Positions 1,099 to 28,466 are shown, counted from the stretch's first letter. The stretch: DNA of 28,471 nucleotides from Sulfurimonadaceae bacterium (GCA_041571435.1 JBFFUI010000030.1:1-28471), one strand, 5' to 3'. Translations and numbers: made by a program. The notes: generated from the sequence alone by a model not told the origin.

Positions 1099-1099
1099 T

Positions 1100-2203: not shown

Positions 2204-2312
2204 TTTCATCTCCCGAATATATACATCTCTGTAGAGCTTCTTTAATCTTATTTCACAAGTGTAACTAATTTTCTCTAGCAGACAAAGAAAATACCAATAC
2301 GTTATAATAGGA

Positions 2313-2330
2313 TTTGTCTCTAACGACAAA
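2313..2330. promoter_or_regulatory. Inverted repeat TTTGTC-N6-GACAAA, candidate transcription-factor site
   Basis: Perfect 6-bp arms in the divergent intergenic region; degenerate copy at about 2269-2286. Confidence 0.4.
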
Positions 2331-2377
2331 CACTGTATCATTTTTTTTAATATTATCCCAAAAACACAAGGCTGAAA

Positions 2378-3262: not shown

Positions 3263-3263
3263 A

Positions 3264-7258: not shown

Positions 7259-8383
7259 TTAACGTGAAATACTCAGCCCGAAACCGACCTGGTTGACGTG
7301 CCTGTCATAATCGATCAGGCTCTGCCCGTACCCGCTGAATGCCTGCAGGTAGAAGAAGATATTGTCACTCAGCGGTACAGGATAGCTCATCTCAAGTTCC
7401 CCCGAGGTGTTTTTGCTATCAAGACTGTAGCGCAGTGTCAGACGGCTCAACAGGTTACCGCTGATGTAGCCCAGTTTCAGTGCGCCGTCACCGTAAAAGT
7501 CGGTGATGTTCGGGTTATCGTTGCTCGCATACTCTTCTCGCATACGATGCCACAACGTCAACTCGGCAAATAGGTTTTTCCACTGAAAGTAGCTGCGGAT
7601 ATACAGACGGTTCCACGAACGCGACTGCGAATCGCGATAAGGACCGTCTGTATATTCGCGTGTCGCATTGAGATCGTTACCCGGCTGACCGTTCGATGCG
7701 TGCTTGTAACCCAATGCGACCGCCTTCAGACCGATAGCGTCAAGTTTGCGGAAAAAGGGAAACGTGACAAAGATCTCCGGTTTGTAATTGCTCTCTCTGA
7801 AGGGGGATGAGTCTATGAAAAGCTGCCAGTACGAGGTCTGGGTATAGGCGCCCGTCCACATCTGTGTAAACCCCCACCACTCCGTCACATAATCGGCACG
7901 CATCGAGATTTGGAACTTGGTCTCGGTGTTGATGTAAAGAGAATCCTGCAGCGCAGGGTCACCGCGGGGGACATTTTCGCTATAGGAGACGACCCAGTAG
8001 TTCGGTTCGTATGCACGCAGACCGAATTTTCCGTTGGCCGACTGCACCAGGGTGTGGGTCGACTCTTCGCTGTCAAGCGGGTCCAGGTTGCTGTAGAGCG
8101 TTTCATAGATCGTCTCTATGTTGCTTTTGTCGATCTCCCACTGGGCCGCTTTTTTGTACCAGAAGATCGCGGCCTTCGGGTCGGCTTCGACCCCCATGCC
8201 GTTTTCATACATCCAGCCCAGTTTGTAGGCGGTCTCCGGGTTTTCATGCTGACGGCTGTACTCCATATAGATCACAAAAGCCTTCGCATACGCTTCGTTT
8301 TCAAAATGGAGCTCCGCTTCGTGCAGCTGCTCGTCGGCATTCAACGTGATGGCAAGCAGAAGAAGAAAAAGAACACGAAACAT
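7259..8383 (-). CDS. pldA: Outer-membrane phospholipase A with N-terminal Sel1-like repeat
   Basis: ETKFQIS, YTQTSYWQ, SSPFRESNYKPE, HASNG...SRSWNR, GYGQSLIDY. Sel1 motif AYKLGWMYENGMGVEADPKAAIFWYKKAA. Confidence 0.92.
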   Translation of the reverse strand: MFRVLFLLLLAITLNADEQLHEAELHFENEAYAKAFVIYMEYSRQHENPETAYKLGWMYENGMGVEADPKAAIFWYKKAAQWEIDKSNIETIYETLYSNLDPLDSEESTHTLVQSANGKFGLRAYEPNYWVVSYSENVPRGDPALQDSLYINTETKFQISMRADYVTEWWGFTQMWTGAYTQTSYWQLFIDSSPFRESNYKPEIFVTFPFFRKLDAIGLKAVALGYKHASNGQPGNDLNATREYTDGPYRDSQSRSWNRLYIRSYFQWKNLFAELTLWHRMREEYASNDNPNITDFYGDGALKLGYISGNLLSRLTLRYSLDSKNTSGELEMSYPVPLSDNIFFYLQAFSGYGQSLIDYDRHVNQVGFGLSISR

Positions 8384-8464: not shown

Positions 8465-8782
8465 TTGACCCTAGACACGATTGAACAGACCCTCCGCTCC
8501 GAACTCGCCGTGGCCCTCTACTTCAGCGCACCGACCTGCAACGTCTGCCACGCCCTCAAACCGAAACTGCTCGAGGCGTTCGAAGTGAACTTCCCGCAGC
8601 TGCAGGTCATCTCCGTCGACATCTCCGAGACCCCGGAGATCGCCTCGCACTTCAGCGTCTTTACCATCCCGACCCTGCTGGTCTACCTCGACGGCAAAGA
8701 GTTCCTCCGAAAAAGCCGCCACATGAGCGTCGGCGAAGTCGTCGAAGAGATCAGACGTCCCTACGATATCATGACCTCGTAA
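8465..8782 (+). CDS. Thioredoxin-family protein
   Basis: CNVC active site, FTIPTL cis-Pro loop, DGKE; TTG start after AAGGA. Confidence 0.85.
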   Translation: MTLDTIEQTLRSELAVALYFSAPTCNVCHALKPKLLEAFEVNFPQLQVISVDISETPEIASHFSVFTIPTLLVYLDGKEFLRKSRHMSVGEVVEEIRRPYDIMTS

Positions 8783-8866
8783 CGATTCGGGCTTTGGAAA
8801 AACCCTTTCCATCCGAAGGCATTCTCCCGTGTTTGCCCTCTACTCTTTACGAAGATTTTTTTTAAT

Positions 8867-9420
8867 CTACTCTTCATACATACTGGTATTGAAATCACAA
8901 AAGGCTTTGTATTCTCCAATTTTAGCAGAGGATAAGATCCTCCGCTCAATGCATTAGAATATTGTCGATAAGCTTTTAACCTTGCTGGCGTATTAAGATA
9001 GATTTCTTCTCTCAAATCGTAGCCTACAAGGTAGTCATATTGATTAATAAGCATGGGATCATTAAAAATGTCTGCATAATCTTTATAATAGAATTCACAA
9101 TAAAGTGCTGAATTCACTTCTTTGTAAATCTCTCTAGCGGCCTGCGGCATTTGCAATGCTTTTTTATAACCTCTTGCAGCCTGCATCGAAATGTCCACAT
9201 AGATCGGATGCTTATCTTTGTAGGTCTTGTATATCCAAATCTCCACATCGTCACGGACGTCATTGTTGTTGACGTCTATCCCAAGCAATGTCGAGTTGTT
9301 CACCACCGGATCGGGCTCCGGCGGCAAAGTGTGACCGTGGATCACTTCGGGTTGTTCGGAAGCGTGCAGTGCGATGCTGCCTGTTACAAGAAGCAGGAGT
9401 GCCAGAAAGTGTTTCATCAT
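8867..9420 (-). pseudogene. Exported hypothetical protein with apparent 1-nt frameshift near 8920
   Basis: Signal peptide, PPEPDP...LLGIDVNNNDVRDDVE. Adding one A to the A4 run (8920-8923) gives C-terminus KIGEYKAFCDFNTSMYEE* (stop 8867); as read, the ORF runs on and overlaps the convergent thioredoxin gene. Confidence 0.6.
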
Positions 9421-10384: not shown

Positions 10385-10621
10385 ATGCTGCGTCTTACTA
10401 TTGAGAACGGTCAGTTTTTAAAAGATGGCCAAAAAGTCGAACTGTCACAGTGCCAGCGGATCAACACAAAAGTCAAAGAGGTCTTTCAATACCTTCTTAA
10501 CAACAATATCGATCTAAAGTTTGAAAAAGATAACAAGAACATCTCTTTTTCGCCCATCCGTCCGGACGTTAAAACGCGTCTGATCAATGCCTTGATGGCC
10601 GACAAGTTGATCCGCCGCTGA
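10385..10621 (+). CDS. Small hypothetical protein (78 aa)
   Basis: AAAGGAG RBS 5 nt upstream; fills an otherwise empty gap; no recognised motif. Confidence 0.7.
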   Translation: MLRLTIENGQFLKDGQKVELSQCQRINTKVKEVFQYLLNNNIDLKFEKDNKNISFSPIRPDVKTRLINALMADKLIRR

Positions 10622-10636
10622 GGCGATGCCGCAACC

Positions 10637-11578
10637 TTAGAAATCAAGACTGAACCCGATGCTCAGGTTCACACCTTCCAACCCTTCGCCTTTTGAGACG
10701 CTCGGTTCGATAAAATAACGGTAGATATACGCTCTTTTCTCAGGTGTGTTCCAATAGAGACTAACACCCGCCGTCGCATAACTGCTGATCTGTGCTACCT
10801 TGGCCAGGTCACCCCAGACATAATTCCCTTTTGCATACGGTTCCAGTGTCAAATACATATCCTGGTAGTGGTACAGAGGATCTGTCTCAAACCCCAGTAT
10901 CAAAGAGGCGACCGCCGTCTGTGAGTTCAGAGAGACGATGTCGCCAATCACATCCTCGACAAGGCCTCCGAAGTCCAGCTTGGAGAGGGTTTTGTAGAGC
11001 TTGTAGTTGAGTCGCATGTAGATGTCATACGCTCTGTATTGCCGGTGATAGTCATACTCCGCAAAAAGTTTGTAGGAGAAGTTTTCATTAAAGTCATCGG
11101 AAAAAAAGTTTTCGATCGTGCTTCCGTCCAGATCCTCATTCGTTCGCACCGAGATCCCGACCCGCGAATAGAGGAGCTCACCGCCAAAGCGCAGATCCGA
11201 ATGTTCGGTTGCCCGGTATCGCAGACCGACGCCTATACCGCCGACATAGGTCTGCATCCGATTGTCAAGCTGCAGAAAGGTTCCGTTGGCATCGACCTGG
11301 CTGTCGCTTCGGACGTCGCTGTAGGCGAGGTCAAGGACCATAAAGACATTTGTGTTTTCACTCAGAGGCTCAAGCTCATAGCTCAGCGGAAGGTTGTACA
11401 TGCGCATCACGGTATCGATCCGGGTAAAGCGGTAGTAACCGGAGCTCAGACCGTCCTGCGATGTAAAGACAACCGCTGCATTGACCGTGGCAAGATAGGC
11501 ATCCTGAGCCAGCTGCTCGTTCAGTGTTGCCGCCTTCATGGATGAAAAAAGTAAAAAACATAAGAGTAATATGCGCAT
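10637..11578 (-). CDS. Outer-membrane beta-barrel, possibly a solitary autotransporter-type barrel
   Basis: Signal peptide, alternating aromatic beta-strands, C-terminal IGFSLDF (Bam signal). Confidence 0.7.
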   Translation of the reverse strand: MRILLLCFLLFSSMKAATLNEQLAQDAYLATVNAAVVFTSQDGLSSGYYRFTRIDTVMRMYNLPLSYELEPLSENTNVFMVLDLAYSDVRSDSQVDANGTFLQLDNRMQTYVGGIGVGLRYRATEHSDLRFGGELLYSRVGISVRTNEDLDGSTIENFFSDDFNENFSYKLFAEYDYHRQYRAYDIYMRLNYKLYKTLSKLDFGGLVEDVIGDIVSLNSQTAVASLILGFETDPLYHYQDMYLTLEPYAKGNYVWGDLAKVAQISSYATAGVSLYWNTPEKRAYIYRYFIEPSVSKGEGLEGVNLSIGFSLDF

Positions 11579-11636
11579 GTACTATTATACACACTAAGCA
11601 GTGAACAACGCAGGCGGGTTAACGGACCCTATACCG

Positions 11637-12806
11637 TTACGATCTGAGTCGCGATTTCAGGACAAGGTAACCCAGGACCCCTGAAAGCAGCGACCCCAGC
11701 AGAATCCCGATGCGCTCATCCGTCATATTGAGACAGGCCCCTTCGGCACACTCAAAGGCGAGAGAACCGATAAAGAGGCTCATCGTAAAACCGATACCGC
11801 CCAGAATGGAGACACCGTAAAGGTGAGCCCAGGTGAGTTTGTCGGGCAGCTTTCCAAGTTTCAAGACGATCGCCAACGCCGCAAAGCTGAAAATACCGAC
11901 CTGCTTGCCGACAAGCAGTCCAAACGTAATCCCAAGCGTCACATTGTCGGTAAAGTCTTTGACACTGATTGCACCGAAACCGACGCCGGTGTTGACGAAG
12001 GCGAAAAGCGGCAATATCGCATAGTTGACCGGACCGTGCAGTGACTCTTCAAGTTCATGAAAGCTCTCTTTGTTGTTGCGAAGCGGGATCAAAAGCCCTA
12101 CAATCACACCGGCTATCGTGGCATGCACCCCCGACTTTAACACGGCAGCCCAGATAATAATGCCCAGCAGGATATAGACGGTATTGTTGGTCACACCCCG
12201 CCAGTTCAGCACCATCAAGACGGCAATGAAGAAGCCCGAGACCGCCAACGCTGTCATGGTAAGGCCGTGCCCGAAAAAGAGCGCAATAACAATGATAGCA
12301 CCCAGATCATCGATGATCGCCAGTGCCAGCAAAAAGACCTTCAGCTCTGCCGGGACGCGCTTGCCGAGGAGCGAAAGGATCCCCAATGCAAAAGCGATAT
12401 CGGTCGCCATGGGAATAGCCCACCCCTGCATCCCGACAGGGTCGTTCCAGTTAAAAACACTGTAGACAAGTGCGGGGACGACCATACCGCCGATGGCCGC
12501 AAAGGTCGGCACGACGATCTTGGAGATATGGCTGAGACTCCCCTCCATCACTTCACGCTTGATCTCCATCCCCACCATGAAGAAAAAGACCGCCATCAGA
12601 CCGTCATTCACCCACAGCAACAGCGGCTTTGCAATACTGAACTCATGGACACTGACAACGACCGGGATATCGAGAAAATCTTTATAGTAATCAGCATAGG
12701 AACTGTTCGCCAGCAACATGGCAAAGAGTGTCGCCATGATGAGTAAAACACCGACAGCAGATTCTCCTTTAAAGAAATCAACAAGAGATTTGTCAAGTAT
12801 AGGCAT
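11637..12806 (-). CDS. nhaA: Na+/H+ antiporter NhaA
   Basis: WVNDGLMAVFFF.VG.EIKRE, GWAIPMATDIAF, LAIIDDLGAI, SGVHATIAG, GIGFTMSLFI. Confidence 0.97.
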   Translation of the reverse strand: MPILDKSLVDFFKGESAVGVLLIMATLFAMLLANSSYADYYKDFLDIPVVVSVHEFSIAKPLLLWVNDGLMAVFFFMVGMEIKREVMEGSLSHISKIVVPTFAAIGGMVVPALVYSVFNWNDPVGMQGWAIPMATDIAFALGILSLLGKRVPAELKVFLLALAIIDDLGAIIVIALFFGHGLTMTALAVSGFFIAVLMVLNWRGVTNNTVYILLGIIIWAAVLKSGVHATIAGVIVGLLIPLRNNKESFHELEESLHGPVNYAILPLFAFVNTGVGFGAISVKDFTDNVTLGITFGLLVGKQVGIFSFAALAIVLKLGKLPDKLTWAHLYGVSILGGIGFTMSLFIGSLAFECAEGACLNMTDERIGILLGSLLSGVLGYLVLKSRLRS

Positions 12807-12918
12807 CAAAACAGTCCTGATAGTTTATTAATCTAATGATACTTAATTCTTGCCAATAGAATGTAAAACCTTTACATTAACAGTATCGACAACAGATGGT
12901 CTTAAAGTAGATGTGGAG

Positions 12919-12947
12919 ATGTTCGCCCCGAATTGCAAGGCGAACAT
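12919..12947 (-). terminator. Hairpin downstream of tkt
   Basis: Perfect 9-bp arms ATGTTCGCC / GGCGAACAT. Confidence 0.6.
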
Positions 12948-12961
12948 TGTGGAAAGAGGGT

Positions 12962-14878
12962 TTAAATCTTGGAGATGATCGCTTCGGCACTGAAACCGAA
13001 CTTCTCAAACAGTTGGTCTGCCGGCGCAGACGCACCGAAACTGTCCATGTTGATCAGCTCATCCGCAAGCTTGTACCACTCCAGACCGCGGGCTGCTTCG
13101 ATGGCAACCGTCTTGGTACCCGGCTTGATAATAGTCTCCATATAGGCTTTGTCCTGCTCAATGAAGAGATCGAAACACGGCACTGAAACAACATTTGCCT
13201 TTATTCCTTTCTCTGCCAGCTTCGCCTGAACCTCAAGTGCAAGCGCGACCTCAGACCCCGAAGCCATAAGCGTGTACGTCGCATCGGCCTCTTCGGCCAA
13301 AAGGTAACCACCCTGGCGTGCAGAACCCGCAGCAGGTGCTTGCAGTATCGGCAGTGTCTGACGAGAACAGACAAATGCAGACGGAGACTTCTTCATCTCT
13401 AGCGCCTGCTGCCATGCCGCAACGTTTTCAGCCCCGTCAGCCGGACGCCAGACATAGAAGTTAGGCAGCGCACGGAACTGGGAGAGATGCTCGATTGGCT
13501 GGTGCGTCGGACCGTCTTCGCCGACACCGATGCTGTCGTGTGTCCAGACGAAAAACTGCTGAATACCGCTTAGTGCAGCGATACGTGCGGCCGGTTTCAG
13601 GTAGTCCGAGAAGACAAAGAAGGTTGCCGAGAACGGCATCAACGGGCCATACAACGCGATCGCATTGGTGATCGAAGCCATAGCGTGCTCACGGATACCG
13701 AAGTAGATGTTCTTACCTTTTGGAAAGACACCCATGTTTTTAAGTTCCGTCTTGTTCGACGGGCTAAGGTCAGCAGAACCCCCGATGAAACCCGGTATCG
13801 CTTTCGCAATCGCATTAAGAACAACCCCGTTGGTACCGCGTGTTGCATCCGCTTTTTCAAATGTCGGCCACTGGATACGGGAAAAGTCAGGGTTTTCAAA
13901 CGCATCCAATGCTTCGTTCTGCTCCATCAATGGCAATGTCTTAAGGGAGTGTTTCCAGGCACGTTCAGCCAGATCACCCTCTTCGACAGCACATCTGAAA
14001 CGCAGCAGTACATCTTCCGGTACGAAAAACTTTTTCTTCGGGTCAAAACCGGCGGCCTGTTTTGCCGCGGCGATCACCTCATCGCCGAGTGGCGCACCAT
14101 GCGAATGGTGTGAGCCTTCAAGCGGGCCGGCACCTTTTGCAATAACCGTGTTTGCGATGATAAGCACCGGCTTTGTTGCCGCCTTTGCCTTGTTGATGGC
14201 ATCGTCGATCTCATTAAAGTTATGCCCATCGATCTCAAGGACTTCCCAGTTCTGCGCTTCAAAACGTTTACGGATATCTTCTGAAATACTGAGGTCGGTT
14301 GAGCCTTCGATCGTAATGCGGTTGGAGTCGTAGATACAGATCAGGTTGTCCAGTCCAAGGTGGCCGGCCAGTGAACACGCCTCATAGGAGATACCTTCTT
14401 CAAGGTCACCGTCACCACACAGTACATAGACATTGTGGTCGATCACGGCAGCCGTATCGGAGTTAAGCTGAGCAGCGACATGTTTGCTTGCCATTGAGAA
14501 ACCGACAGCATTGGCGACACCCTGACCCAACGGTCCTGTCGTGATCTCAATACCGGCCGTGTGACCATACTCCGGGTGACCCGGCGTCTTTGAGTCGAGT
14601 TGACGGAATTTTTTAAGATCTTCCATCTCCAGTCCATACCCCCAAAGGTAATAGAGCGAGTAGATCAGACCGGTAGCATGTCCTCCGGAGAAGACCAGAC
14701 GGTCACGGTTCAACCACTCAGGGTTCTTCGGGTTATGCGAGAGGTGCTCGCTTAAAACGACGGCGATATCGGCAAGACCCATCGGTGCACCTGGGTGACC
14801 TGAGTTGGCAGCTTGAACCATATCGGTTGCTAAAAAACGGATGCTATCGGCCATCTTTTGGCGCATTGTATTTGACAT
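12962..14878 (-). CDS. tkt: Transketolase
   Basis: ANSGHPGAPMG, TTGPLGQG, GDGDLEEG, GIREHAM, GEDGPTHQP. Start at MSNT after AAGGA. Confidence 0.97.
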   Translation of the reverse strand: MSNTMRQKMADSIRFLATDMVQAANSGHPGAPMGLADIAVVLSEHLSHNPKNPEWLNRDRLVFSGGHATGLIYSLYYLWGYGLEMEDLKKFRQLDSKTPGHPEYGHTAGIEITTGPLGQGVANAVGFSMASKHVAAQLNSDTAAVIDHNVYVLCGDGDLEEGISYEACSLAGHLGLDNLICIYDSNRITIEGSTDLSISEDIRKRFEAQNWEVLEIDGHNFNEIDDAINKAKAATKPVLIIANTVIAKGAGPLEGSHHSHGAPLGDEVIAAAKQAAGFDPKKKFFVPEDVLLRFRCAVEEGDLAERAWKHSLKTLPLMEQNEALDAFENPDFSRIQWPTFEKADATRGTNGVVLNAIAKAIPGFIGGSADLSPSNKTELKNMGVFPKGKNIYFGIREHAMASITNAIALYGPLMPFSATFFVFSDYLKPAARIAALSGIQQFFVWTHDSIGVGEDGPTHQPIEHLSQFRALPNFYVWRPADGAENVAAWQQALEMKKSPSAFVCSRQTLPILQAPAAGSARQGGYLLAEEADATYTLMASGSEVALALEVQAKLAEKGIKANVVSVPCFDLFIEQDKAYMETIIKPGTKTVAIEAARGLEWYKLADELINMDSFGASAPADQLFEKFGFSAEAIISKI

Positions 14879-14888
14879 TGTAATTCCT

Positions 14889-15734
14889 TTATCGGTGTCT
14901 ATTGATGTACTTCGAAAGTATTGGGGAGAGTGTACGCTGTAGACTCTCATCAAAACTTTGCAACTGTTCTTCTATCTCTGCCGCCAGAACGTTGGCTTCA
15001 CCCATCGCTTTTTCAAGGCCAAGCAGGGTGACAAAGCTGTTTTTCGCTTCATCATTGTTGGTGGTCTTGCCCGCCTCTTCATCACTTTGTGTCACATCCA
15101 ATATATCATCTTGGATCTGAAAAAGCAGACCGACTTTGATCCCAAAATCATAAATAGGCCGCTGCAGCTCTTGTTGACCTGCGATGATCGCACCCATCTC
15201 CAGGGCACAGGCGATCAGTTTGCCCGTCTTGTTGATGTGAAGCATCTTGACCTGCTCCAGTGTCAGCGGCTGGTTCTCAAAATAGCAATCAATAGCCTGT
15301 CCCAACACCATACCGCTGACGCCGCCGTTATGCGAAAGGGAACGGATCAGTTTCACCCGTATCGCATCGGAAAACGGTGCGTTTGAGAGCACTTCAAACG
15401 CGTAGGTGTTAAGCGCATCACCGACCAGGACCGCTGTGACCTCATCAAAACGTTTGTGCAGGGTCTGATGGCCTCGACGAAGATCGGCATTGTCCATCGC
15501 CGGAAGGTCGTCATGAATAAGCGAGTAGGTGTGTAGAAGTTCGATAGCGTATGCCGCATGGTTGGCACCGTCAAGCAGAAGCGTGTTATAGGCGCTGACA
15601 ACAGCTAAAAGGAGTTCAGGACGGAAACGTTTTCCGCCCGCTTCGAGCATGGTATAGAGTGCTTCCTCGTAGTGGGGATGAAAGCTCGAGGCAACAGGTC
15701 TATGTTCTGCTATAAATGCTTCAAATGCTTGCAT
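14889..15734 (-). CDS. ispA: Geranyltranstransferase / farnesyl-diphosphate synthase
   Basis: GGKRFRP, SLIHDDLPAMDNADLRRG, GQAID, KTG, FQIQDDILD. Confidence 0.95.
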   Translation of the reverse strand: MQAFEAFIAEHRPVASSFHPHYEEALYTMLEAGGKRFRPELLLAVVSAYNTLLLDGANHAAYAIELLHTYSLIHDDLPAMDNADLRRGHQTLHKRFDEVTAVLVGDALNTYAFEVLSNAPFSDAIRVKLIRSLSHNGGVSGMVLGQAIDCYFENQPLTLEQVKMLHINKTGKLIACALEMGAIIAGQQELQRPIYDFGIKVGLLFQIQDDILDVTQSDEEAGKTTNNDEAKNSFVTLLGLEKAMGEANVLAAEIEEQLQSFDESLQRTLSPILSKYINRHR

Positions 15735-15770
15735 CTCTATCCTATGTTTTTGGTACGAAATATTACCACA

Positions 15771-16385
15771 TTAATAATGAAAGTTCAGCCCCAGCTCAAC
15801 CGTTAAAGAGTGATCGGAAAGTTCGACGTTCTGTGTATTCGTCGTATCCAGGTTGTAGTTGCCCCACATACGGTATTTGTAGTATGTGCCCAGCTGCCAC
15901 TCCAGGCTCTCTGACATACGCCAGAACGTCCCGACGCCGAAGTTCAGACCGACATTCGAGGCCCAAGACTGTGCATAGCTCTCCAACGACATGAACGCAT
16001 AGTCCATACCGGCTTTGAAATACGGCAACATGGAAGAACCCCGTTCACTATAGGTCTTGATAATATCAAAACCGACACTGTAGAGCAGTTGGTTGCTCGA
16101 GCCGACACTCTTGCCTGCCGGCACCTCATAGTTGTAGATATCTTCGTCAAAATATTGAAGGCCGAAAAAGATATTGGTACGTACATCTTCACCGCTGTCG
16201 ATACCGAGGTTGAGTTTACCGCCGTAGAGGATCGGGTTCATCGTGACATTTGCTGCCTTCGAATTTTCCTGTTCAATCCAGCCATAACCACTGTCAAGTG
16301 TCACACCCACGTATTGGCTGCCTGCTGCTTGAAGTGTCAAACCACTGAAAAGTACGCCGTAAAGTAATTTTTTATAATGCATCAT
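15771..16385 (-). CDS. Small outer-membrane beta-barrel protein (about 8 strands)
   Basis: Signal peptide, LPYFKAG, LNFGVG, C-terminal LGLNFHY. Confidence 0.78.
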   Translation of the reverse strand: MMHYKKLLYGVLFSGLTLQAAGSQYVGVTLDSGYGWIEQENSKAANVTMNPILYGGKLNLGIDSGEDVRTNIFFGLQYFDEDIYNYEVPAGKSVGSSNQLLYSVGFDIIKTYSERGSSMLPYFKAGMDYAFMSLESYAQSWASNVGLNFGVGTFWRMSESLEWQLGTYYKYRMWGNYNLDTTNTQNVELSDHSLTVELGLNFHY

Positions 16386-16449
16386 CCGTCCTGAAACTGT
16401 AGTAAAAACATTATAGCTGGCAAAGGCTTGAAAAGAGAAGAGTGGAGTT

Positions 16450-16469
16450 GCCCAGCGTTACGCTGAGGC
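16450..16469 (-). terminator. Hairpin downstream of panD
   Basis: GCCCAGCG/CGCTGAGGC arms followed by a pyrimidine-rich tract on the minus strand. Confidence 0.5.
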
Positions 16470-16498
16470 TGAAATAGATGTTTTATTGCAGCTGTAGA

Positions 16499-16864
16499 TT
16501 AGATCTCGTCAAGGACATGATCAATATCATTGTCGTCATTTAACAGTACCACACGTGGCTTGTAAGCTTCTAGCTCATTTTCATGGTAGGTCGCATACGC
16601 CACGACGATGATCTTATCACCTTTATGGACTTTACGGGCAGCTGCACCGTTAAGACAGATGTCACGTTTACCACGCTCACCTAGAATAATATAGGTCGAG
16701 AAACGTTCACCGTTATTGATGTTGAGGATCTCAACTTTTTGACCAACACGCATTTTCGACGCTTCCAAAAGTTCTTCGTCAATAGTTATCGAACCGACAT
16801 AGTTAAGGTTCGCATCGGTTACAGTCGCGCGGTGGATCTTGCTGTATAACATTTCAATAGTCAT
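16499..16864 (-). CDS. panD: Aspartate 1-decarboxylase
   Basis: [22 protein letters not shown] self-cleavage site, [16 protein letters not shown]. Confidence 0.97.
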
Positions 16865-16875
16865 CGCAACTTTCC

Positions 16876-17250
16876 TTATCTGCCCATCTGCTTCATCATA
16901 TCAGCAGGTGTGATTGGTGCATCCCAGAGTTCGTCCTGGATCACAAATTCTTCCACGACATTGCCGCCAATGATATGTTCTTCAATGATACGGTCAATGG
17001 CATCTTTGGTCAAACCGGCATACATCGTGTGTCCAGGCTCAACCAACATAACAGGACCAACATTACAGCGGTTAAGACATGCTGAACGGATTGGCTGTAC
17101 TGTACCTATAATACCCTTTTGCATCAAAGATTGTGCTAAATGCTGGAACAGATCCTGTGTGTCCGGTCTGACACATGATGGTTTCGGCATTCCTGGAGGT
17201 GCAGATTGTTCGCACTTGAAAATATAAAAAGCCGGCTGTGGTATGCCCAT
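16876..17250 (-). CDS. Thioredoxin-like [2Fe-2S] ferredoxin
   Basis: C-x12-C...CLNRC..GP motif, IIEEHIIGG. Start at MGIPQ after GGAG. Confidence 0.88.
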
Positions 17251-17435
17251 TTTGTTCTCCATAAATACAGGTCAAATCTGACCTGTCTAGTAAAATTTTC
17301 GCGTATTATATCCAAACTCTTCAGTCAATTGTTTAGTTATGAATTTATACACATATATTTAAGATTCATTTTTTGCTCAGTCTAAGATGAAATTGCCTAA
17401 AATGGCACACAATCTATATTTGGAGCACCTGCAGT

Positions 17436-21051: not shown

Positions 21052-22269
21052 TTAAACGGTACCCATTATCTGCATCACATAACTCGGCTTGCGCATACCG
21101 ACTAAGATGTAATCAATGTTTTCCTGGGCCTGTAAAAAGTCAAGTGCACACTCTTGAAGCGGTTTATCACACCCTTGAAGTTTCTCTTTTAACTGCACCT
21201 TTGTCATCTTTGTGCACTCAAATGCGACCATCCTTGCATACTCTTGCAAAAAGAGGTCTAACGCTTCAGCCAAAAGATCGACCACTGAGGGGTCTATCTC
21301 TTGTAATGTTTTTTGAAGGTGTGGAATAACCTGTACATGTAAAAACTGGTCGTACTCGCCCACAAAGCCAAAACGGTGTTTGACATCATCAAGCTGCGCG
21401 ATCAAGTTATGGATGCTTTGCAGTGCTTCATCGTCTGTCATCTCCAATACTTCATTGAGATGATGGTAATAGTCATGCGGTTCACTGTAACTGGCCAGAC
21501 GGAACATAAGGTTATTAGCCTCTGCATTTAACGGACGATTTGCCAACACACGAAGCCCGTTCTTTTTAGCCCACGCTGCACATTTCAGCCCTTCCGTCTC
21601 AAGCAGGTTAATCGGAAGCTGTACCGTCGTAAAGTGGTGCTGATCACTTCCCGCCTCTTTTGCCGCGCGTTTTGCTATCACGACAAGGTCTTCATAAGGC
21701 AGGAACTCAGGGTCGTTACTCGCTTTTGAAAACGAGTTCGAGCTTATGCCGTAACTTTTGATTCGACCACTCTGCACCTCTTTTTCCAAGGCGACAAACG
21801 CTTTTTCAATGCGTTCAAACATTCTGTCGAGTGTCTCGTTGCGGTCAAGGTCATGGTTCATGGCATCGAGTATAAAATACTCCGGGTTGTGAATAAGATA
21901 ACATCCTAACGCGTCCATGTTAAGACGGTCAAGCGACTGTGTCAACTGGTCTTGCATAAACTCCGGCGAGATACAGTGGTAGATATGCTCCGCGTACTTG
22001 ACGATCTCCGGAAATGTTTCACCCTCTTGAACACGCTGAAGCGTTGTGCCTTGGATGTAGCCATACTTGCTGACGATCTCGACATGTTCAATTGTCTTGG
22101 TCGGCATCGGTTGAAACGCCAAAGCGATTGCCCTCTCTGCACCACCGTCCATGTAGTTGGTCGATGTGTCGATAAGGTCAACCCCCTCTTCGACCGCCGT
22201 CTTGATCGCCTGAAGATGTTCCGGGTTAAGGTCACTGACCCTGTAGGTTCCAAATCCGATTTTAGCCAC
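21052..22269 (-). CDS. Aldo/keto reductase family protein
   Basis: IGFGTY, IDTSTNY, SK, LIHNP (D/Y/K/H tetrad), GRIKSYGISS, LVGMR; GTG start after AAGGA. Confidence 0.88.
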   Translation of the reverse strand: MAKIGFGTYRVSDLNPEHLQAIKTAVEEGVDLIDTSTNYMDGGAERAIALAFQPMPTKTIEHVEIVSKYGYIQGTTLQRVQEGETFPEIVKYAEHIYHCISPEFMQDQLTQSLDRLNMDALGCYLIHNPEYFILDAMNHDLDRNETLDRMFERIEKAFVALEKEVQSGRIKSYGISSNSFSKASNDPEFLPYEDLVVIAKRAAKEAGSDQHHFTTVQLPINLLETEGLKCAAWAKKNGLRVLANRPLNAEANNLMFRLASYSEPHDYYHHLNEVLEMTDDEALQSIHNLIAQLDDVKHRFGFVGEYDQFLHVQVIPHLQKTLQEIDPSVVDLLAEALDLFLQEYARMVAFECTKMTKVQLKEKLQGCDKPLQECALDFLQAQENIDYILVGMRKPSYVMQIMGTV

Positions 22270-22504: not shown

Positions 22505-23365
22505 TTATTTAAATGGTTTCGCAAGGTCTTTTTCGATTGCACCTGGTACAGACGCAATAGTCATGAACTCGCCCATCGTAAGTCGCGGATAAGAGATCGC
22601 GATCAGGTACTTAGGCGCAAGCATCTTCGCTTTACCGTCTTCGATCAGGATCGTGTACGGCAGAATCTGCGAGTTTTGGTAACCGATCTTCTTAACAAAC
22701 TTCGAGGTCTTCTTGCCTACGGCATAGCCAAGCAGTGTACGACCTTCTCCGATTTGAAGTTCAAAGACAAGCTCTTTGCCTTTTTTATAGGCTTTTGCTT
22801 TTGCAAGAAGCTCTGCGTTGTCACCTTCGCCAATCACGGCAAACTCATCATAATATGGCATACCCATCATGAAGTGGTAACCGGCAAGACCGTCAAACGC
22901 CCATTGGTCAGCTGAACCTTTCAAGTCACCGAATGCATCGGTAAGACTTTTCTGAATCGCTAAAGCAGCCTGGTAATCAAACTCATCCTGCATAAACGCT
23001 TTACCGAAGTAGACCGGGTTCGTAATACTGATCTCTTTCTTTTCATTATTGACCAGTAGACGAAGTACCGCGGCGAAACCGCGGTCCGCTTTGTCTGCTG
23101 CAGATTTCATTGCCGCATTGGTAAACACAACCGAGATGTATTTACCTTTCTTGTCAACTTTATAAGCTGCCAAGACGTCGAAACCGGCTTCTGTAAGCTT
23201 CGCTTGCGCTGCATCAGCGTCAACATAAGCACCTAGAAGATAGGTACTTACATTTTCTTCCGCTGGCTTTGCCGTCATGCTGTCAGAAGCTGCCGCCTCT
23301 TTCGATGCGCATCCGCTAAACGAAAGCAGCAACGCTGCGACTACAAAGGCTAAGAGTTTTCTCAT
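22505..23365 (-). CDS. Hypothetical lipoprotein, possibly two divergent DUF302-like repeats
   Basis: Lipobox FSG|C; start overlaps the upstream stop (ATGA); motifs YHFMMGMPY and LPYTILIEDGK. Confidence 0.8.
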   Translation of the reverse strand: MRKLLAFVVAALLLSFSGCASKEAAASDSMTAKPAEENVSTYLLGAYVDADAAQAKLTEAGFDVLAAYKVDKKGKYISVVFTNAAMKSAADKADRGFAAVLRLLVNNEKKEISITNPVYFGKAFMQDEFDYQAALAIQKSLTDAFGDLKGSADQWAFDGLAGYHFMMGMPYYDEFAVIGEGDNAELLAKAKAYKKGKELVFELQIGEGRTLLGYAVGKKTSKFVKKIGYQNSQILPYTILIEDGKAKMLAPKYLIAISYPRLTMGEFMTIASVPGAIEKDLAKPFK

Positions 23366-24375
23366 ATACTTTTAGCTCCAAGACCTTCCATGATACCGAC
23401 GATCTCTTTGTCAAGTGTGTGGATAGCGTCGACCTTTTTTGGATCTTTAACGCCCATTACAGCGATCCAGTTTTCAAGTTTCGGCATACCGATAACCAAC
23501 TTGTTGCTACCTTTTTCAATATACATGTACATTGAACATGGAGCAAATGCACCGGCATCCGGGCGTGCATCACCTTCCTGACCATCTACAAGGTTAAACA
23601 CACCGTTTGAGAATGTGAAGTGACATAGTGAATAAACAAAGTATGCATCGTACTTGTCAAAGTCAAGTTCAAGGTCAGTATATGCTTCTTTGAAGTTTTT
23701 GTAACCGGCAATGATATATTTATTATCTTCGAATGTTGCTTCAAACTCTTCTTGGAACGTGTCAATGAACTCAGAAAGCTCTTCCGGACGCTCAAATGTT
23801 AATTCAAAGTTCATCATTGGGTTAGGCGTAAGCTTGTCGTACTTAACGATCTCAACTTTGCCGCCAAGCTTTTCATCAACAAGTTTGTCAAGTGGCTCAA
23901 AGATCTTAGTAAACTCGGCACGTGTTGCTTTGTCCTGAACGCCTACGATGTCCAGCATCGTGTTTGGCGTGACGTGACCGACACGTGTATTCTCGTCGCC
24001 TTTCACTTTGTAGATATGAAGGTTGAACGGGCTGAAGCCACCTAGTTCAGGTGCCTTTAGAAGTAGTGGACGAAGTGCTTCATCTGCTGTCATAGAAAAG
24101 AAACCAAGGTTATCCAGGTTAGTTCCGCCGTATTTTGTCGCATACGCGTCATTGATACGCTCATGTGGATCAGAAAGAACAAAACCGATACCTTCCATAT
24201 CGTTCTCTAGCATATCCATATACTTTTTCTCTACTACAGTAGCCGCTTTCTCATCTTTAGATGGGTTTTTAAGCATACTGTCCTTGATAACATTAAAACG
24301 AACGCCGTCTGTCGCCATTGCAAGTGTAGCTGCAAGGCTTAGTGCTAGTGCACCTGTTACTAATTTTGAAAACAT
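23362..24375 (-). CDS. Periplasmic protein with tandem DUF302-like domains
   Basis: Signal peptide (AMA|T), AAGGAG RBS; repeats PELGGFSPFNLHIY and PDAGAFAPCSMYMY, YSLC. Confidence 0.75.
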   Translation of the reverse strand: MFSKLVTGALALSLAATLAMATDGVRFNVIKDSMLKNPSKDEKAATVVEKKYMDMLENDMEGIGFVLSDPHERINDAYATKYGGTNLDNLGFFSMTADEALRPLLLKAPELGGFSPFNLHIYKVKGDENTRVGHVTPNTMLDIVGVQDKATRAEFTKIFEPLDKLVDEKLGGKVEIVKYDKLTPNPMMNFELTFERPEELSEFIDTFQEEFEATFEDNKYIIAGYKNFKEAYTDLELDFDKYDAYFVYSLCHFTFSNGVFNLVDGQEGDARPDAGAFAPCSMYMYIEKGSNKLVIGMPKLENWIAVMGVKDPKKVDAIHTLDKEIVGIMEGLGAKSI

Positions 24376-24430
24376 GAATCTCCTTGTTTTTAGCTTCTTG
24401 TGTTTTGGACACAAAAATTTTTGCTGGGTA

Positions 24431-24439
24431 ATTTTATCA
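24431..24439 (-). promoter_or_regulatory. Extended -10 promoter (TGaTAAAAT) for the DUF302/lipoprotein operon
   Basis: TGnTAAAAT 55 nt upstream of the ATG. Confidence 0.5.
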
Positions 24440-24631
24440 CAAATGTATCAACCAAACATTTATTAAACCATATTTGCATATTATTTTTTACAAAATGTAG
24501 CATAATGGCAACATCTTAAATTTGGCAGAGTATTGTTTCAATGACTGGTATAAATGTAACAAAAAGTTGTGAAGTGATTGTGTATTATCCCATGAGAGAA
24601 CAGCCGATGGCTATATAACAATGGATGGGTA

Positions 24632-24668
24632 AGAAGGGGCAACCACACATCGGTAGTTACACACTTCT
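24632..24668 (-). terminator. Hairpin after FadL-like gene 1
   Basis: AGAAG.GUAACUAC/GUGGUUGC.CUUCU; shares ATCGGTAGTyAC with the paralogue's terminator. Confidence 0.55.
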
Positions 24669-24675
24669 ATGAGAG

Positions 24676-25974
24676 TTAGAAGTTGTAGTTAAGACCTACA
24701 GAGACACTTGTTTGTGAATGTTTTGTCGTAATATCTTGACCTACAAAGTTTTTGTAAGTATCTTCGACCTCCGGCGCGTATGCGACAGCAAGGTCAACAG
24801 ATGTTTGTTTATCAAAACCGTATGTACCACCGATTGAAGCGTGAGATTCAATTGTAGCTGGAAAGCCTAGAAGGTTGAACGTATTAATCATACCACCTGT
24901 TAGGCCGTTACTTCCAGCTGCGTTATCTTGCTCTGATATTGGGCTTGAAGCATAGTTATAACCAATGCGCACTGCCCAAAGGTCTTGCGAATATTGATAA
25001 CCTAGAGCAATAACATTTTGATCATCCCATGCGAAATCTTTGTACCCTTCTGCATCTGACCATTTGATCTGCTTGTAATCAAATGCAATTGTATTCCCCG
25101 CGATTTCGTAACTAATACCTGCACCAACTTCTGCCGGCGTTGATAATTTGTCATTTGTATAAGCACCGCCAGTCATTGCACCTGCAGCTGTTGACAGAAC
25201 ACCCTTGTATTCCATGTCGATTTGTGACTTGTATGAAAGCCCCATAGTAACGCCTGCAATCTCATAGGCTGCACCAATATTTATTCCAAATTTAAGGTCT
25301 TGACCAACGCCCGAGCCAACTGTCATAGGCATTGTAGCACCCCCAAAGGTACCTGTTTGCATCCAGTACATAGCGTTTTGAAGATCTGCAGACATTGCAT
25401 AGTTAATATCCAAAGCTCCATATTGTAAAACTGGCGTGATACCAACACTAAAGTTATTTCTAGCATACACCAAAGGTACACCAAACTGCATGAGCTGAAG
25501 GTTTGTAACCATATTCAACTGACCTGTATTCGCAGCATCACGGTAGTCGACACCCATACCGGCTGTCCCCCACATACCGACACCCCAGTAGAAGTTGTCA
25601 TTGACTTTAGTAGCCAGAGAGACCGACGGAATAACACTCATATCTGCTTTGCTTGTAGCAGTACTGGAGCCATCGCTAACACCAGTAATAGTACCGGTAC
25701 CCGTGATACCTGTTGGAACAACTAGACTATTTGTACTTTCGACATCAGGCATAAAGACTGTGCCGCCAAATTGTATTTCAGTCCCGTTGACTGATGAGAT
25801 CAAAGCTGGATTAACTAGCGCAGACTCCGCACCATGTGCCATACCGATCCCAGCACCGGCCATACCGCGTGCTTTAGCACCAACGCCGATTAGATTTGAA
25901 CCATTGGTAGCAAATGCAGACGTTGCACCAAGGACCATTGAAGCTGCTAGAGCCAGTTTAATTGTTTTTGTCAT
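24676..25974 (-). CDS. OmpP1/FadL/TodX-family outer-membrane channel (copy 1)
   Basis: Signal peptide, hatch ATNG..LIG.GAKAR.MAG, NPA motif, GMGVDY, AVRIGYNY, C-terminal LNYNF. Confidence 0.9.
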   Translation of the reverse strand: MTKTIKLALAASMVLGATSAFATNGSNLIGVGAKARGMAGAGIGMAHGAESALVNPALISSVNGTEIQFGGTVFMPDVESTNSLVVPTGITGTGTITGVSDGSSTATSKADMSVIPSVSLATKVNDNFYWGVGMWGTAGMGVDYRDAANTGQLNMVTNLQLMQFGVPLVYARNNFSVGITPVLQYGALDINYAMSADLQNAMYWMQTGTFGGATMPMTVGSGVGQDLKFGINIGAAYEIAGVTMGLSYKSQIDMEYKGVLSTAAGAMTGGAYTNDKLSTPAEVGAGISYEIAGNTIAFDYKQIKWSDAEGYKDFAWDDQNVIALGYQYSQDLWAVRIGYNYASSPISEQDNAAGSNGLTGGMINTFNLLGFPATIESHASIGGTYGFDKQTSVDLAVAYAPEVEDTYKNFVGQDITTKHSQTSVSVGLNYNF

Positions 25975-26031
25975 TTAATTCTCCTAATAATTGATAAGTC
26001 GCAAGTCGAACACTCAATTTTGACTTCGCCC

Positions 26032-26064
26032 ATTATAGGTCTGTAAAAAAAAACTAAACTTAAA
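26032..26064 (-). promoter_or_regulatory. Campylobacterota-type sigma70 promoter of FadL-like gene 1
   Basis: TTTAAG...T-tract...TATAAT, mirrored upstream of copy 2. Confidence 0.65.
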
Positions 26065-26415
26065 AAGAAAATGGCATAAATGATACTTTTTTATGATTAT
26101 CATCAAAAAATTTAATCTTATAAGACTACTTAATAATTATTATATAAACAATAGCAATATATGGCTACTTTTGCATTTATTTTAATATAAATATTCATAT
26201 ATAGTTAAAACTAACAAATAGAGAAAATTTATTCCAGACAAAACAAATATAGAACAGTGTAGTAATTCTCTACATACTAACCTTCTATTATTTATACAAA
26301 AAAAGCTGTTGAAAGTTCAATAGTTATTACCAGAGAGGATACTCTAAACTGATTTACTAATCGATTTCGTTTGAAATTTTATGGAATTTGGTCTGAGTTA
26401 AGATGTATGTGATAG

Positions 26416-26457
26416 AAAAAATATAGAAGTAACTACCAGATCGGTAGTCACTCTACA
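26416..26457 (-). terminator. Intrinsic terminator after FadL-like gene 2
   Basis: UGUAGAGUGACUACC-loop-GGUAGUUACUUCUAUA followed by a U-tract. Confidence 0.72.
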
Positions 26458-26466
26458 ATCAAAAGA

Positions 26467-27672
26467 TTAGAAGTTATAATTTAGAGCAGCAGTCAATGAG
26501 ATCTGATCATTATTTGCCGTAATTTCACCAGCTGGTGAACCTGGCATCCATGTATTTGCTGGAATATCAGCACTTGCAGAACCTGTTCCATATACGAAAG
26601 CACCATCAAGTGATACTTTTTCAGAGAAAGCATATGTACCACCAACTGTATAGTGGTTTTCTGTTACAGCTGGGAACATTGCTAAACTACCAATAACTTG
26701 GTTAGCTGACACACCACCATCTGCGAAAGTACCGTCAATATCAGTCGGTAGCGGAGATGCTCCATGATTATAACCTACACGTACTGCCCATGCATCAGCC
26801 GCAAACTCATAACCTAATGCAAAAACATTTTGATCATCCCATGCAAAATCTTCAAAACCTTTTGCTGAGCTATAAGCAATGTTTTTGTAGTCAACAGCAA
26901 CTGTATGATTTTTTAGGAAGTTGTAAGAGACACCAGCTGCAATTGTTTGAGGTGTATCCAGTTTCGTGTTTGACCCTGGTTGGCCAGTCATAGCAAGACT
27001 GTCAAAAGTATTTTTAAAATCGTGCGTTACAGCTGATTTATAATCAAGACCGATAGTTACACCAGCAATTTGATAAGCAGCACCTACTTCAGCCCCATAT
27101 GCAATATCAGTTGTAACACCAGTACCACCCATTGACAATGCACCATATTCGATTATTGGAGAAAAGCCCAAAGACAAGCCGTCAACTGGCATCCATGCCA
27201 ATGGTACAGAAAAACGCATCAACATAAGGTTGTCATTTGCACCAGATGGTACTGTTGTTGCAGGTGATTCTCTATAATCAACACCCATACCGCCAACACC
27301 ATATAGTGCTAGTCCCCATGCAAAATTATCATTCACTTTATCAGCTGTAGAAACTGCAGGAATCATACTAGCATTAGCTGTACTGCTTTCAGTTGTATTA
27401 GCTAAAGTTGGTGATGTGAAATCTGGTCCTTCAAAAGAAACATCTGGTGAAAAGTAAGTTCCACCAATAGATACTTCTGTACCCTTAGCATAACCAATAA
27501 GAGCCGGGTTGTTGAAACCAGATTCAGCACCTTGGAACTGAGCAACACCTGTACCACCCATTGCGCGAGATTTTGCACCATATCCGATTAATGCAGTACC
27601 ATTTGTTGCAAATGCAGAAGTTGCACCAAGGACCATTGAAGCTGCAAGAGCCAATTTGATTGTTTTTGTCAT
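26467..27672 (-). CDS. OmpP1/FadL/TodX-family outer-membrane channel (copy 2)
   Basis: Same signal peptide and hatch start, NNPA, GMGVDY, FAWDDQNV, C-terminal LNYNF. Confidence 0.9.
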   Translation of the reverse strand: MTKTIKLALAASMVLGATSAFATNGTALIGYGAKSRAMGGTGVAQFQGAESGFNNPALIGYAKGTEVSIGGTYFSPDVSFEGPDFTSPTLANTTESSTANASMIPAVSTADKVNDNFAWGLALYGVGGMGVDYRESPATTVPSGANDNLMLMRFSVPLAWMPVDGLSLGFSPIIEYGALSMGGTGVTTDIAYGAEVGAAYQIAGVTIGLDYKSAVTHDFKNTFDSLAMTGQPGSNTKLDTPQTIAAGVSYNFLKNHTVAVDYKNIAYSSAKGFEDFAWDDQNVFALGYEFAADAWAVRVGYNHGASPLPTDIDGTFADGGVSANQVIGSLAMFPAVTENHYTVGGTYAFSEKVSLDGAFVYGTGSASADIPANTWMPGSPAGEITANNDQISLTAALNYNF

Positions 27673-27736
27673 TATGTAATTCTCCTAATAGAATTGAAAA
27701 GTTGAAAATCCGAGCTCTCGAATTTTTACTTCGTCC

Positions 27737-27770
27737 ATTATATGCGAGTGAAAATAAACTGAAACTTAAA
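27737..27770 (-). promoter_or_regulatory. Campylobacterota-type sigma70 promoter of FadL-like gene 2
   Basis: TTTAAG...T-rich...TATAAT, same layout as copy 1. Confidence 0.65.
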
Positions 27771-28349
27771 TACAAAGCAATTGATATAGTTTTTTCTTAT
27801 AAGATATAAAGTTTTTTTTCATGTTACTTTCATTTTACTGATAAATTTATATTAATTATTATAAAAAAGCCTCCAGAGGGCATTTTTTTAACATTATTTA
27901 ACATTATAGCTATTGAAAATTCATTATGAAAGATATATAAATGTTATAAGAGCAACTAGTAGGATGTGTATATTCGAAACATATGAAATAAATACACTTC
28001 GCTTTGTAATAATCAGGATGAGCGTGATTCGATCAGAAAGGTGTTACTACGTGCCCAAAAATATATAAGTTATCTATCAATAAATCATGACATAATCCTA
28101 TGCAGCAATACGTATTTTCTTTTGCAGTGTAGATGAAATGATATAAATCAAACACTATGATTTAAAAAAAGTTCGAAGAGATGGTATAAACAATGAATTA
28201 TGAAAACTGAATAAAGTAGATGTAGATAGTGAAGTGGTAAATGAAGGAGCATTGAATACACAGACTATAGCGTGAGAATGTATGGTTATAAAGCTTATGA
28301 AAAAATGATTATAAATGAAGAGAAATGAGTGTGAAAGATTAATCCGAGA

Positions 28350-28466
28350 ACTAGGCGGCGACCTACGTTTCCACACCTGAAAGGTGCAGTATTATCAGCG
28401 AAGGGAGGCTTAGCTTCTGGGTTCGGAATGGAGCCAGGCGTTTCCCTCTCTCTATAGCCACCTAGA
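28350..28466 (-). rRNA. rrf: 5S ribosomal RNA
   Basis: Reverse complement TCTAGGTGGCTATAG...GAAACGCCTGGCTCCATTCCGAACCCAGAAGCTAAG...GCTGATAATACTG...GTAGGTCGCCGCCTAG; terminal helix pairs; ends approximate. Confidence 0.96.

Follow-up and report, generated by a model that had tools for sequence, protein, structure and literature searches.

A stretch of 28,471 nucleotides (nt) from a Sulfurimonadaceae bacterium (GCA_041571435.1 JBFFUI010000030.1:1-28471), analysed over its whole length and called the window below, carries in its 3' third four co-oriented open reading frames (ORFs) on the minus strand (22505..27770). These encode two outer-membrane channels of the FadL family (FadL1 and FadL2), a secreted protein with two DUF302 domains (D302A) and a lipoprotein (Lipo). 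FadL–D302A–Lipo is a conserved envelope module of Sulfurimonadaceae, and a family of tandem-DUF302 paralogues is embedded in the soxCDYZ operons of Campylobacterota. A first-pass annotation had proposed the four genes as an uptake system for elemental sulfur (S0) or another hydrophobic solute. The layout that it described, four envelope genes in one orientation with no fatty-acid or aromatic catabolic genes nearby, is borne out: the 27 window ORFs scanned include no such catabolic gene. The module and its upstream side consist of the following features.

27672..26467, minus strand: FadL1, FadL/TodX-family outer-membrane channel, 401 amino acids (aa); PF03349, 86.8 bits
26427..26453, minus strand: terminator-like hairpin just past the FadL1 stop codon, 12-bp stem followed by a T-run; a consensus match only
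25974..24676, minus strand: FadL2, second FadL/TodX-family channel, 432 aa; PF03349, 101.4 bits
24375..23362, minus strand: D302A, secreted tandem-DUF302 protein, 337 aa; Pfam, AlphaFold2 (AF2) fold and internal repeat
23365..22505, minus strand: Lipo, lipoprotein of 286 aa with two predicted DUF302-like domains that lack cysteine; lipobox C19 and AF2 fold
27673..28349, minus strand: AT-rich leader without an ORF, about 680 nt from the 5S rRNA gene to FadL1; GC content 0.34-0.35 in this part
28350..28465, minus strand: 5S rRNA gene directly upstream, outside the module and given as context; Rfam RF00001, 76.9 bits

The reading frames of Lipo and D302A overlap by 4 nt, as in translationally coupled genes, and the gap from FadL2 to D302A is 300 nt. 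Neither promoter-like hexamers (24 against an expected 18.1 +/- 4.2) nor terminator-like sites (4 in the region against 4.9 +/- 2.4 in shuffled sequences) exceed chance. Rfam at its gathering thresholds detects neither riboswitches nor other RNA families in the leader and between the genes, and a search for direct repeats flanking the FadL genes returns just the similarity expected of the FadL1/FadL2 paralogues.

Two FadL-family barrels

By sequence, FadL1 and FadL2 are new members of the known FadL family. Both lie well above the PF03349 cut-off of 29.7 bits; the match of FadL1 covers residues 19-401 (profile positions 11-421 of 421) and that of FadL2 covers profile positions 5-349 of 421. 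An N-terminal plug, or hatch, domain with a conserved NPA motif is a feature of E. coli FadL. In both barrels a signal peptide, a plug-region NPA motif (GFNNPALIG in FadL1, ALVNPALIS in FadL2) and a C-terminal NYNF can be read from the sequence. The nearest solved relatives of the two barrels are CymD, E. coli FadL, TbuX and TodX (E 1e-9 to 1e-6). TbuX and TodX come closest in sequence to FadL1 (E 4e-6 to 7e-6), and CymD to FadL2 (6z34; E 9e-9), the latter with a full-length alignment that includes the NPA motif.

The two channels have near-identical starts (27598-27672 and 25900-25974, minus strand): their first 25 residues are identical, as are 77 of the first 90 nt. Because the proteins are only 44% identical overall, this suggests either gene conversion or that the signal peptide and the beginning of the plug are strongly constrained.

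D302A and Lipo

D302A is numbered here from the ATG at 24375, which is most likely the start because it yields a signal-peptide-like N-terminus; the alternative is a TTG at 24414. In Pfam, repeat 1 reaches 20.5 bits against DUF302 (PF03625), just below the cut-off of 23, and paralogues of the protein reach 29-42 bits on either repeat 1 or repeat 2. PF03625 is present in the precomputed annotation of nearly all among the 120 D302A homologues listed. The N- and C-terminal halves match each other in hhalign (76% probability, E 2e-5), indicating an internal repeat. The AF2 model, with a mean predicted local distance difference test score (pLDDT) of 88.9 and a predicted template-modelling (TM) score of 0.86, matches solved DUF302 structures in Foldseek (1q9u at E 3e-5 and target TM 0.82; 1j3m and 7tj1 at probability 1.0), whereas a profile search of PDB sequences gives a marginal hit to 1q9u only (E 0.43). 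On its modelled fold, D302A is thus a tandem DUF302 protein.

The protein has just two cysteines, C251 and C280, both in repeat 2, so that the two DUF302-like repeats with cysteine in the second only, as first described, are confirmed by hhalign and by the AF2 model with Foldseek. Both cysteines are invariant in 22 orthologues and align with both cysteines of 1q9u, in the family motifs ..C-N-P.. and ..L-P-C... H71, H120, H134, H252 and M282 are invariant as well.

Lipo carries a lipobox, FSGC, ending at C19 (LLSFSG-C19), with F16, G18 and C19 at least 90% conserved in 27 homologues; its N-terminus weakly matches a lipoprotein model, and no Pfam family matches the protein. The original identification of a lipoprotein gene overlapping D302A therefore holds. 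The two motifs quoted by the first-pass annotation as methionine-rich, HFMMGMPY and LTMGEFMTI, are both present and nearly invariant in the 27 aligned homologues. Lipo as a whole is not methionine-rich: 10 of its 286 residues (3.5%) are methionine, a share similar to that of neighbouring proteins, and the enrichment is local (M166, M167, M169, M264 and M268).

The AF2 model of Lipo (pLDDT 81.3) has a strand-helix order that occurs twice, and falls below 50 at residues 164-172; the YHFMMGMPYY stretch is predicted to be a flexible loop. In Foldseek the model matches 7tj1 (probability 1.0, target TM 0.56-0.61), 1q9u (0.97, TM 0.53) and 1j3m (0.87, TM 0.49), all with weak E-values (0.02-0.06). An atlas lead for Lipo, which serves as a lead only, is a DUF302 cluster (score 0.86). 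Two segments had been picked out as resembling the DUF302 repeat, LRLLV...ITNP and LPYTILIEDGK...AP. In the predicted fold both are hairpins that match the DUF302 ..LPC.. hairpin, with the cysteine lost in each; the resemblance does not extend to profiles, as hhalign detects no similarity between Lipo and D302A or between the two halves of Lipo. A profile search of PDB sequences with Lipo gives no match either. Complex predictions for D302A residues 22-337 with Lipo residues 36-286, made with alignments, reach scores of 0.28 and 0.20, where the mark is 0.32, and are evidence neither way.

Conservation of the module

At E<=1e-3, D302A has 730 homologues and Lipo 1102; among the matches listed, all named ones belong to Sulfurimonadaceae or other Campylobacterota. 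In the searches made, the D302A-Lipo family occurs among Campylobacterota sulfur oxidisers only. A locus scan with one genome per species covered 121 relatives, and 80 of the 121 loci were analysed; they come from Sulfurimonas, Sulfuricurvum and metagenome-assembled genomes (MAGs) of Sulfurimonadaceae or 'Helicobacteraceae', with one labelled Arcobacter and one Pseudomonadota.

Where at least 900 nt of downstream sequence is available (78 loci), Lipo is the next gene after D302A in 77, and the matched stretches are separated by a median gap of 0. A co-oriented FadL gene ends within 1.5 kb upstream of D302A in 54 of the 57 loci with at least 1500 nt upstream (L008, L017 and L025 are without one), and there are one to three FadL copies per locus. 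Linkage elsewhere had been named as a test of the proposal, and in the related loci the genes are linked. Because the genes flanking the module vary among lineages, it appears to move as a unit.

In four of nine loci scanned, belonging to several genera, 23S/5S rRNA genes are followed by FadL, as in the window (rRNA at L006 1-665, L011 1-113, L034 1-386 and L067 1-2587). Many MAG contigs stop just upstream of FadL, probably because an rRNA operon lies there. With FadL in this position, one may ask whether there is read-through or very high expression.

Fusions of tandem-DUF302 units with the Lipo-like domain

At E<=1e-3, a profile search with the Lipo alignment yields 477 cluster representatives, of which 109 reach E<=1e-30; in these relatives the Lipo-like domain is often the C-terminal part of a longer protein. 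Among 24 long relatives examined, 16 carry one to three tandem-DUF302 units N-terminal to it, and several of these begin with a lipobox; the remaining eight have N-terminal extensions without a match. Pfam detects DUF302 in 12 of 37 Lipo relatives. One fusion has 297 relatives, of which the named ones are from Sulfurovum sp., MAGs of Campylobacterota or 'Epsilonproteobacteria', and a vent metagenome.

A tree of 52 D302 units was built from 18 of 81 A-type sequences (those of D302A, chosen to span the loci), 10 of the B type and 11 of the C type (the sox-operon paralogues described below, taking every one covered to at least 75%), and, from 11 fusions, 13 units. The C clade (100/100) and the B clade (99/98) are well supported, and the A units do not resolve as a group (54%). 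Seven fusion units fall among the A type and six with the B type, one of which, P0257, is sister to the sox-linked B sequences (99/100). The Lipo domain would thus partner physically with both A- and B-type units. Because the two are fused in one polypeptide in other lineages, D302A and Lipo are suggested to behave as one functional unit, and the fusions with both types would tie this unit to the sox-linked branch. The relay of the first-pass annotation, from channel to anchored extractor to soluble carrier, is therefore not supported in that form, since the fusions suggest one unit rather than successive stations.

Two further arrangements occur among the relatives of Lipo. P0247, P0262, P0272 and P0277 have two or three full tandem-DUF302 units before the Lipo-like domain and reach 1345 aa, P0272 with a weak GldD-lipoprotein match besides. 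In more distant relatives (P0338-P0377, E 1e-25 to 1e-36), an N-terminal DUF3313 lipoprotein domain replaces DUF302 (8 of 37).

Paralogues of D302A in sox operons

Some loci contain two more tandem-DUF302 genes detectable by tblastn, D302B (about 40% identical to D302A) and D302C (about 25%). According to Pfam they end a co-directional gene string, soxC-soxD-soxY-soxZ-(thioredoxin-like)-MOSC-D302C-D302B, with gaps of 28-97 nt; it comprises the SoxC molybdopterin protein, the SoxD dihaem cytochrome c, a thioredoxin-like gene in some loci and a small MOSC-domain gene. The string is found at 10548-16940 of locus L050 and also in L023, L025, L037, L061, L062, L065, L068, L070, L078 and L079. Of the 11 loci that extend beyond soxZ, all have D302C and 10 have D302B. 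C251 and C280 are invariant across the paralogue groups A, B and C (11 sequences), and the histidines are conserved in A and B but not in C.

The sox string and the FadL module are immediate neighbours in 12 of the 80 loci, or in 11 of the 58 with at least 6 kb downstream. The arrangement is co-directional, behind a 119-aa ORF, in six Sulfuricurvum loci (L050, L061, L065, L075, L078 and L079) and convergent, across a PAS gene, in six others (L023, L025, L037, L062, L068 and L070). The operon is given as soxCDY2Z2 only in PMC12936845 and PMC7952632 (accessible text), and the first of these, citing another paper, names soxCDY2Z2 as the cluster induced by S8 in Sulfurimonas denitrificans.

Single-domain DUF302 genes are placed in sulfur-oxidation clusters of other bacteria as well. 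As far as the available portions of the papers go, such genes lie between soxA and soxB in Acidithiobacillia (PMC5037610) and between soxF and soxH in Sulfitobacter (PMC11034169), and one lies in the sqr1 operon of Synechocystis (PMC5061849). The sulfur link drawn in the first-pass annotation gains independent genomic support from these clusters, from the sox-operon paralogues and from the adjacency of sox to the module.

Two loci have further neighbours of interest. In L025 (926-5041 and 7982-8947), with sox nearby and no FadL, a 1371-aa cadherin-domain protein is encoded upstream of D302A-Lipo, and downstream lie a second Lipo paralogue (28% identical) and then genes for a caspase-domain protein and an LPP20-like lipoprotein. 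In L019 (Sulfuricurvum), a rhodanese-domain protein and a 970-aa molybdopterin oxidoreductase are encoded at 12105-16172, 2-4 kb downstream of the module, which may be chance.

Possible function of the module

We favour the reading, at a probability of roughly 0.45, that zero-valent sulfur, as S8 or as long-chain polysulfanes, would travel by way of the module between the cell surface and periplasmic SoxCD-SoxY2Z2. The FadL barrels would let hydrophobic sulfur species through the lipopolysaccharide barrier, and a lipid-anchored D302A-Lipo unit would sit under them, where its anchor would be in the outer membrane if the +2 rule for lipoprotein sorting in E. coli holds in this phylum. The conserved methionine/aromatic loop of Lipo might take up the cargo, and the C251/C280 pair, in the sole cysteine-bearing DUF302 repeat, might open the sulfur or carry it as a protein-bound polysulfane. 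After transfer to SoxY2Z2, or to the paralogues encoded with sox, the sulfur would be oxidised. A more specific version, doubtful at present, is that this constitutes the first dedicated elemental-sulfur route into a neutrophilic sulfur oxidiser, in which FadL admits S8, a lipid-anchored DUF302 complex underneath opens the ring by means of the conserved cysteines and the polysulfane passes to SoxY2Z2/SoxCD.

Several observations weigh against this transport of zero-valent sulfur. The support for it comes throughout from genomic context. The 28-kb window contains no sox gene, so that D302A itself is not in a sox operon, only its paralogues D302B and D302C being there, and 47 of the 58 loci with enough flank have no sox neighbour. 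All loci come from one family of sulfur oxidisers; the restriction to sulfur oxidisers is thereby confounded with taxonomy, and the conserved adjacency may partly reflect inheritance. Co-transcription of the FadL genes with D302A-Lipo is uncertain because of the hairpin after FadL1 and the 300-nt gap before D302A, and the likeness of Lipo to DUF302 is that of a predicted fold matched at weak E-values.

Published work on S0 does not favour this transport either. Induction by S0, which the first-pass annotation had named as a check, finds no support in the S0 tables of Sulfurovum indicum (PMC10045233 supplement): these tables, which hold differential genes only and come from a strain that may or may not carry the module, have no DUF302/PF03625 entry, and no FadL is in the S0-oxidation lists. 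Under S0 reduction, one FadL is up 2.5-fold and another down 3-fold, and the induced one adjoins a lipase-like gene. Studies of S0 use in Sulfurimonas and Sulfurovum implicate OprD-like porins, not FadL, according to the accessible text of PMC10045233.

A second explanation keeps the link to sulfur and drops uptake. The module might release or deposit S0 that forms in the periplasm, for example by the action of sulfide:quinone oxidoreductase, or D302A-Lipo might assist Sox in the periplasm as a redox or chaperone accessory, FadL being a bystander. Sulfur chemistry is what the paralogues in sox operons and the invariant cysteines indicate, without saying which way the sulfur moves. A bystander FadL is in keeping with the terminator-like hairpin of FadL1 and the gap before D302A, with the presence of D302A without FadL in L017 and L025, the latter still near sox, and with the position of FadL, which in the window and in four of nine loci comes straight after an rRNA operon, as might be expected of an abundant general outer-membrane protein. 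The constancy of the pairing argues otherwise: FadL precedes D302A in 54 of 57 loci of Sulfurimonas, Sulfuricurvum and relatives despite differing outer flanks. Selection on the pairing is also suggested because the FadL copy number varies from one to three at this one place. Overall, we regard this explanation as unlikely.

The module might also take up a hydrophobic compound other than sulfur, such as long-chain fatty acids, hydrocarbons or a lipid-like cofactor, which the DUF302 proteins would bind or solubilise in the periplasm. Fatty acids or hydrocarbons are the cargo of every FadL-family channel characterised so far, and the closest solved relatives of the barrels (CymD, FadL, TbuX and TodX) are of this kind. 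A Sulfurimonas FadL in a wastewater metaproteome was taken as a sign of fatty-acid uptake (bioRxiv 10.1101/2021.11.16.468786, in the part available), and the lipase-like neighbour of the induced FadL of Sulfurovum indicum is consistent with such a cargo. Against these points, neither the window nor the scanned flanks of related loci contain genes for beta-oxidation, acyl-CoA ligase or aromatic catabolism, paralogues of D302A are in sox operons, and the hosts are chemolithoautotrophs. A non-sulfur cargo is accordingly quite unlikely, and ranks just behind the previous explanation.

Handling of a soft metal, Cu(I) or Hg, in the periplasm is very improbable: the YHFMMGMPYY loop of Lipo with H71, H120, H134, C251, H252, C280 and M282 of D302A may resemble methionine/histidine/cysteine metal sites, and DUF302 genes appear to be named in metal-resistance papers (PMC7760498 and PMC6305408), one being mentioned near arsenic genes (accessible text of PMC5061849), but no metal efflux, chaperone or regulator genes adjoin the module in the window or the loci scanned, FadL channels are not known as metal routes, and the histidines, unlike the cysteines, are not conserved in paralogue C. 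The remaining probability goes to none of the explanations listed here.

Comparison with known systems

The barrels of the module share with FadL, TodX, TbuX and CymD the PF03349 match, the NPA plug region, a C-terminal aromatic residue and a full-length alignment to CymD, but they are only distantly similar to them (E 1e-6 to 1e-9) and have no catabolic partner genes. To our knowledge, no characterised FadL system has a dedicated pair of periplasmic and lipoprotein partners, whereas in the module such a pair is conserved. A combination of a FadL channel with dedicated DUF302-type and lipoprotein partners appears undescribed in the literature searched, as do tandem-DUF302 paralogues in campylobacterotal soxCDYZ operons. 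No literature linking Sulfurimonas and DUF302 was found, and nothing joining Sulfurimonas and FadL was found on sulfur.

That a sulfur bacterium might use a FadL channel for zero-valent sulfur has been put forward once before: the Chlorobaculum tepidum homologue CT2230 was speculated to move hydrophobic sulfur chains (bioRxiv 10.1101/172254, in the portion available). That proposal came from a sulfide-repressed promoter motif, and the same portion mentions no DUF302 or lipoprotein partners; the likeness of CT2230 to the module is one of idea. OprD-like porins are, like the module, candidate outer-membrane routes for S0 in the same phylum (accessible text of PMC10045233). They belong to a barrel family unrelated to FadL and are induced or abundant on S0, an expression support that the module lacks; no periplasmic acceptor is proposed for them, whereas the module offers one.

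D302A matches the single-domain DUF302 proteins (1q9u, 1j3m) in its modelled fold and keeps the two family cysteines in repeat 2. Its family also shares the link to sulfur-oxidation genes with the single-domain proteins of Acidithiobacillia, Sulfitobacter and Synechocystis, as far as the consulted portions of those reports go. It differs in that the domain is doubled with cysteines in one copy, that its partner, separate or fused, is a further double domain lacking cysteine, and that it is linked to FadL. In the titles and abstract openings of the literature naming DUF302, no function is reported for any such protein. SoxYZ is a periplasmic cysteine sulfur carrier encoded in the same operon as D302B and D302C; its fold and family are unrelated to those of D302A, for which a carrier role is a possibility drawn from context.

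For acidophilic as well as neutrophilic sulfur oxidisers, the entry and activation of insoluble, hydrophobic elemental sulfur form a recognised gap, and passage of S0 through the outer membrane is stated to be an open problem (both in the available text of PMC10045233). The module supplies a candidate gene set for S0 entry, consisting of a channel, an anchored double-domain partner and a cysteine-bearing DUF302 protein, with two residues, C251 and C280, of particular interest. The genera Sulfurimonas, Sulfuricurvum and Sulfurovum are the dominant agents of sulfur turnover in vents, redoxclines and sulfidic aquifers. If the more specific version, with ring opening by the DUF302 complex, is true, the widespread DUF302 domain would gain its first role, that of a periplasmic sulfane-sulfur acceptor or carrier, and FadL channels their first known periplasmic partners. 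Whatever the cargo, the module would indicate that periplasmic partners dedicated to a FadL channel can exist.

Other features of the window

Downstream of the module lie genes for an aldo/keto reductase, a NifU-like protein, a tetratricopeptide repeat protein and MurE. The aldo/keto reductase (21052-22269, minus strand), which adjoins the module, is unusually long at 405 aa: its Pfam domain covers residues 3-248 only, and the C-terminal 150 or so residues are without a Pfam domain. It is kept beside the module only in the closest relatives (L001-L009 and L014).

An outer-membrane phospholipase A1 (PF02253, E 7e-63) with an N-terminal Sel1 repeat is encoded at 7259-8383 on the minus strand, at a distance of 15 kb from the FadL genes. 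No Pfam family matches five ORFs of 113-313 aa (among them 8471-9420, 10637-11578, 15771-16385 and 16876-17262, minus strand). At 322-5756 there is a cyclic-nucleotide signalling cluster, comprising a class-II phosphodiesterase-like metallo-beta-lactamase, a protein with GAF and HD-GYP-type HD domains, and an 830-aa protein with a cyclic nucleotide monophosphate (cNMP)-binding domain at its C-terminus. A tandem-rhodanese protein is encoded mid-way in this cluster (2378-3262, plus strand).

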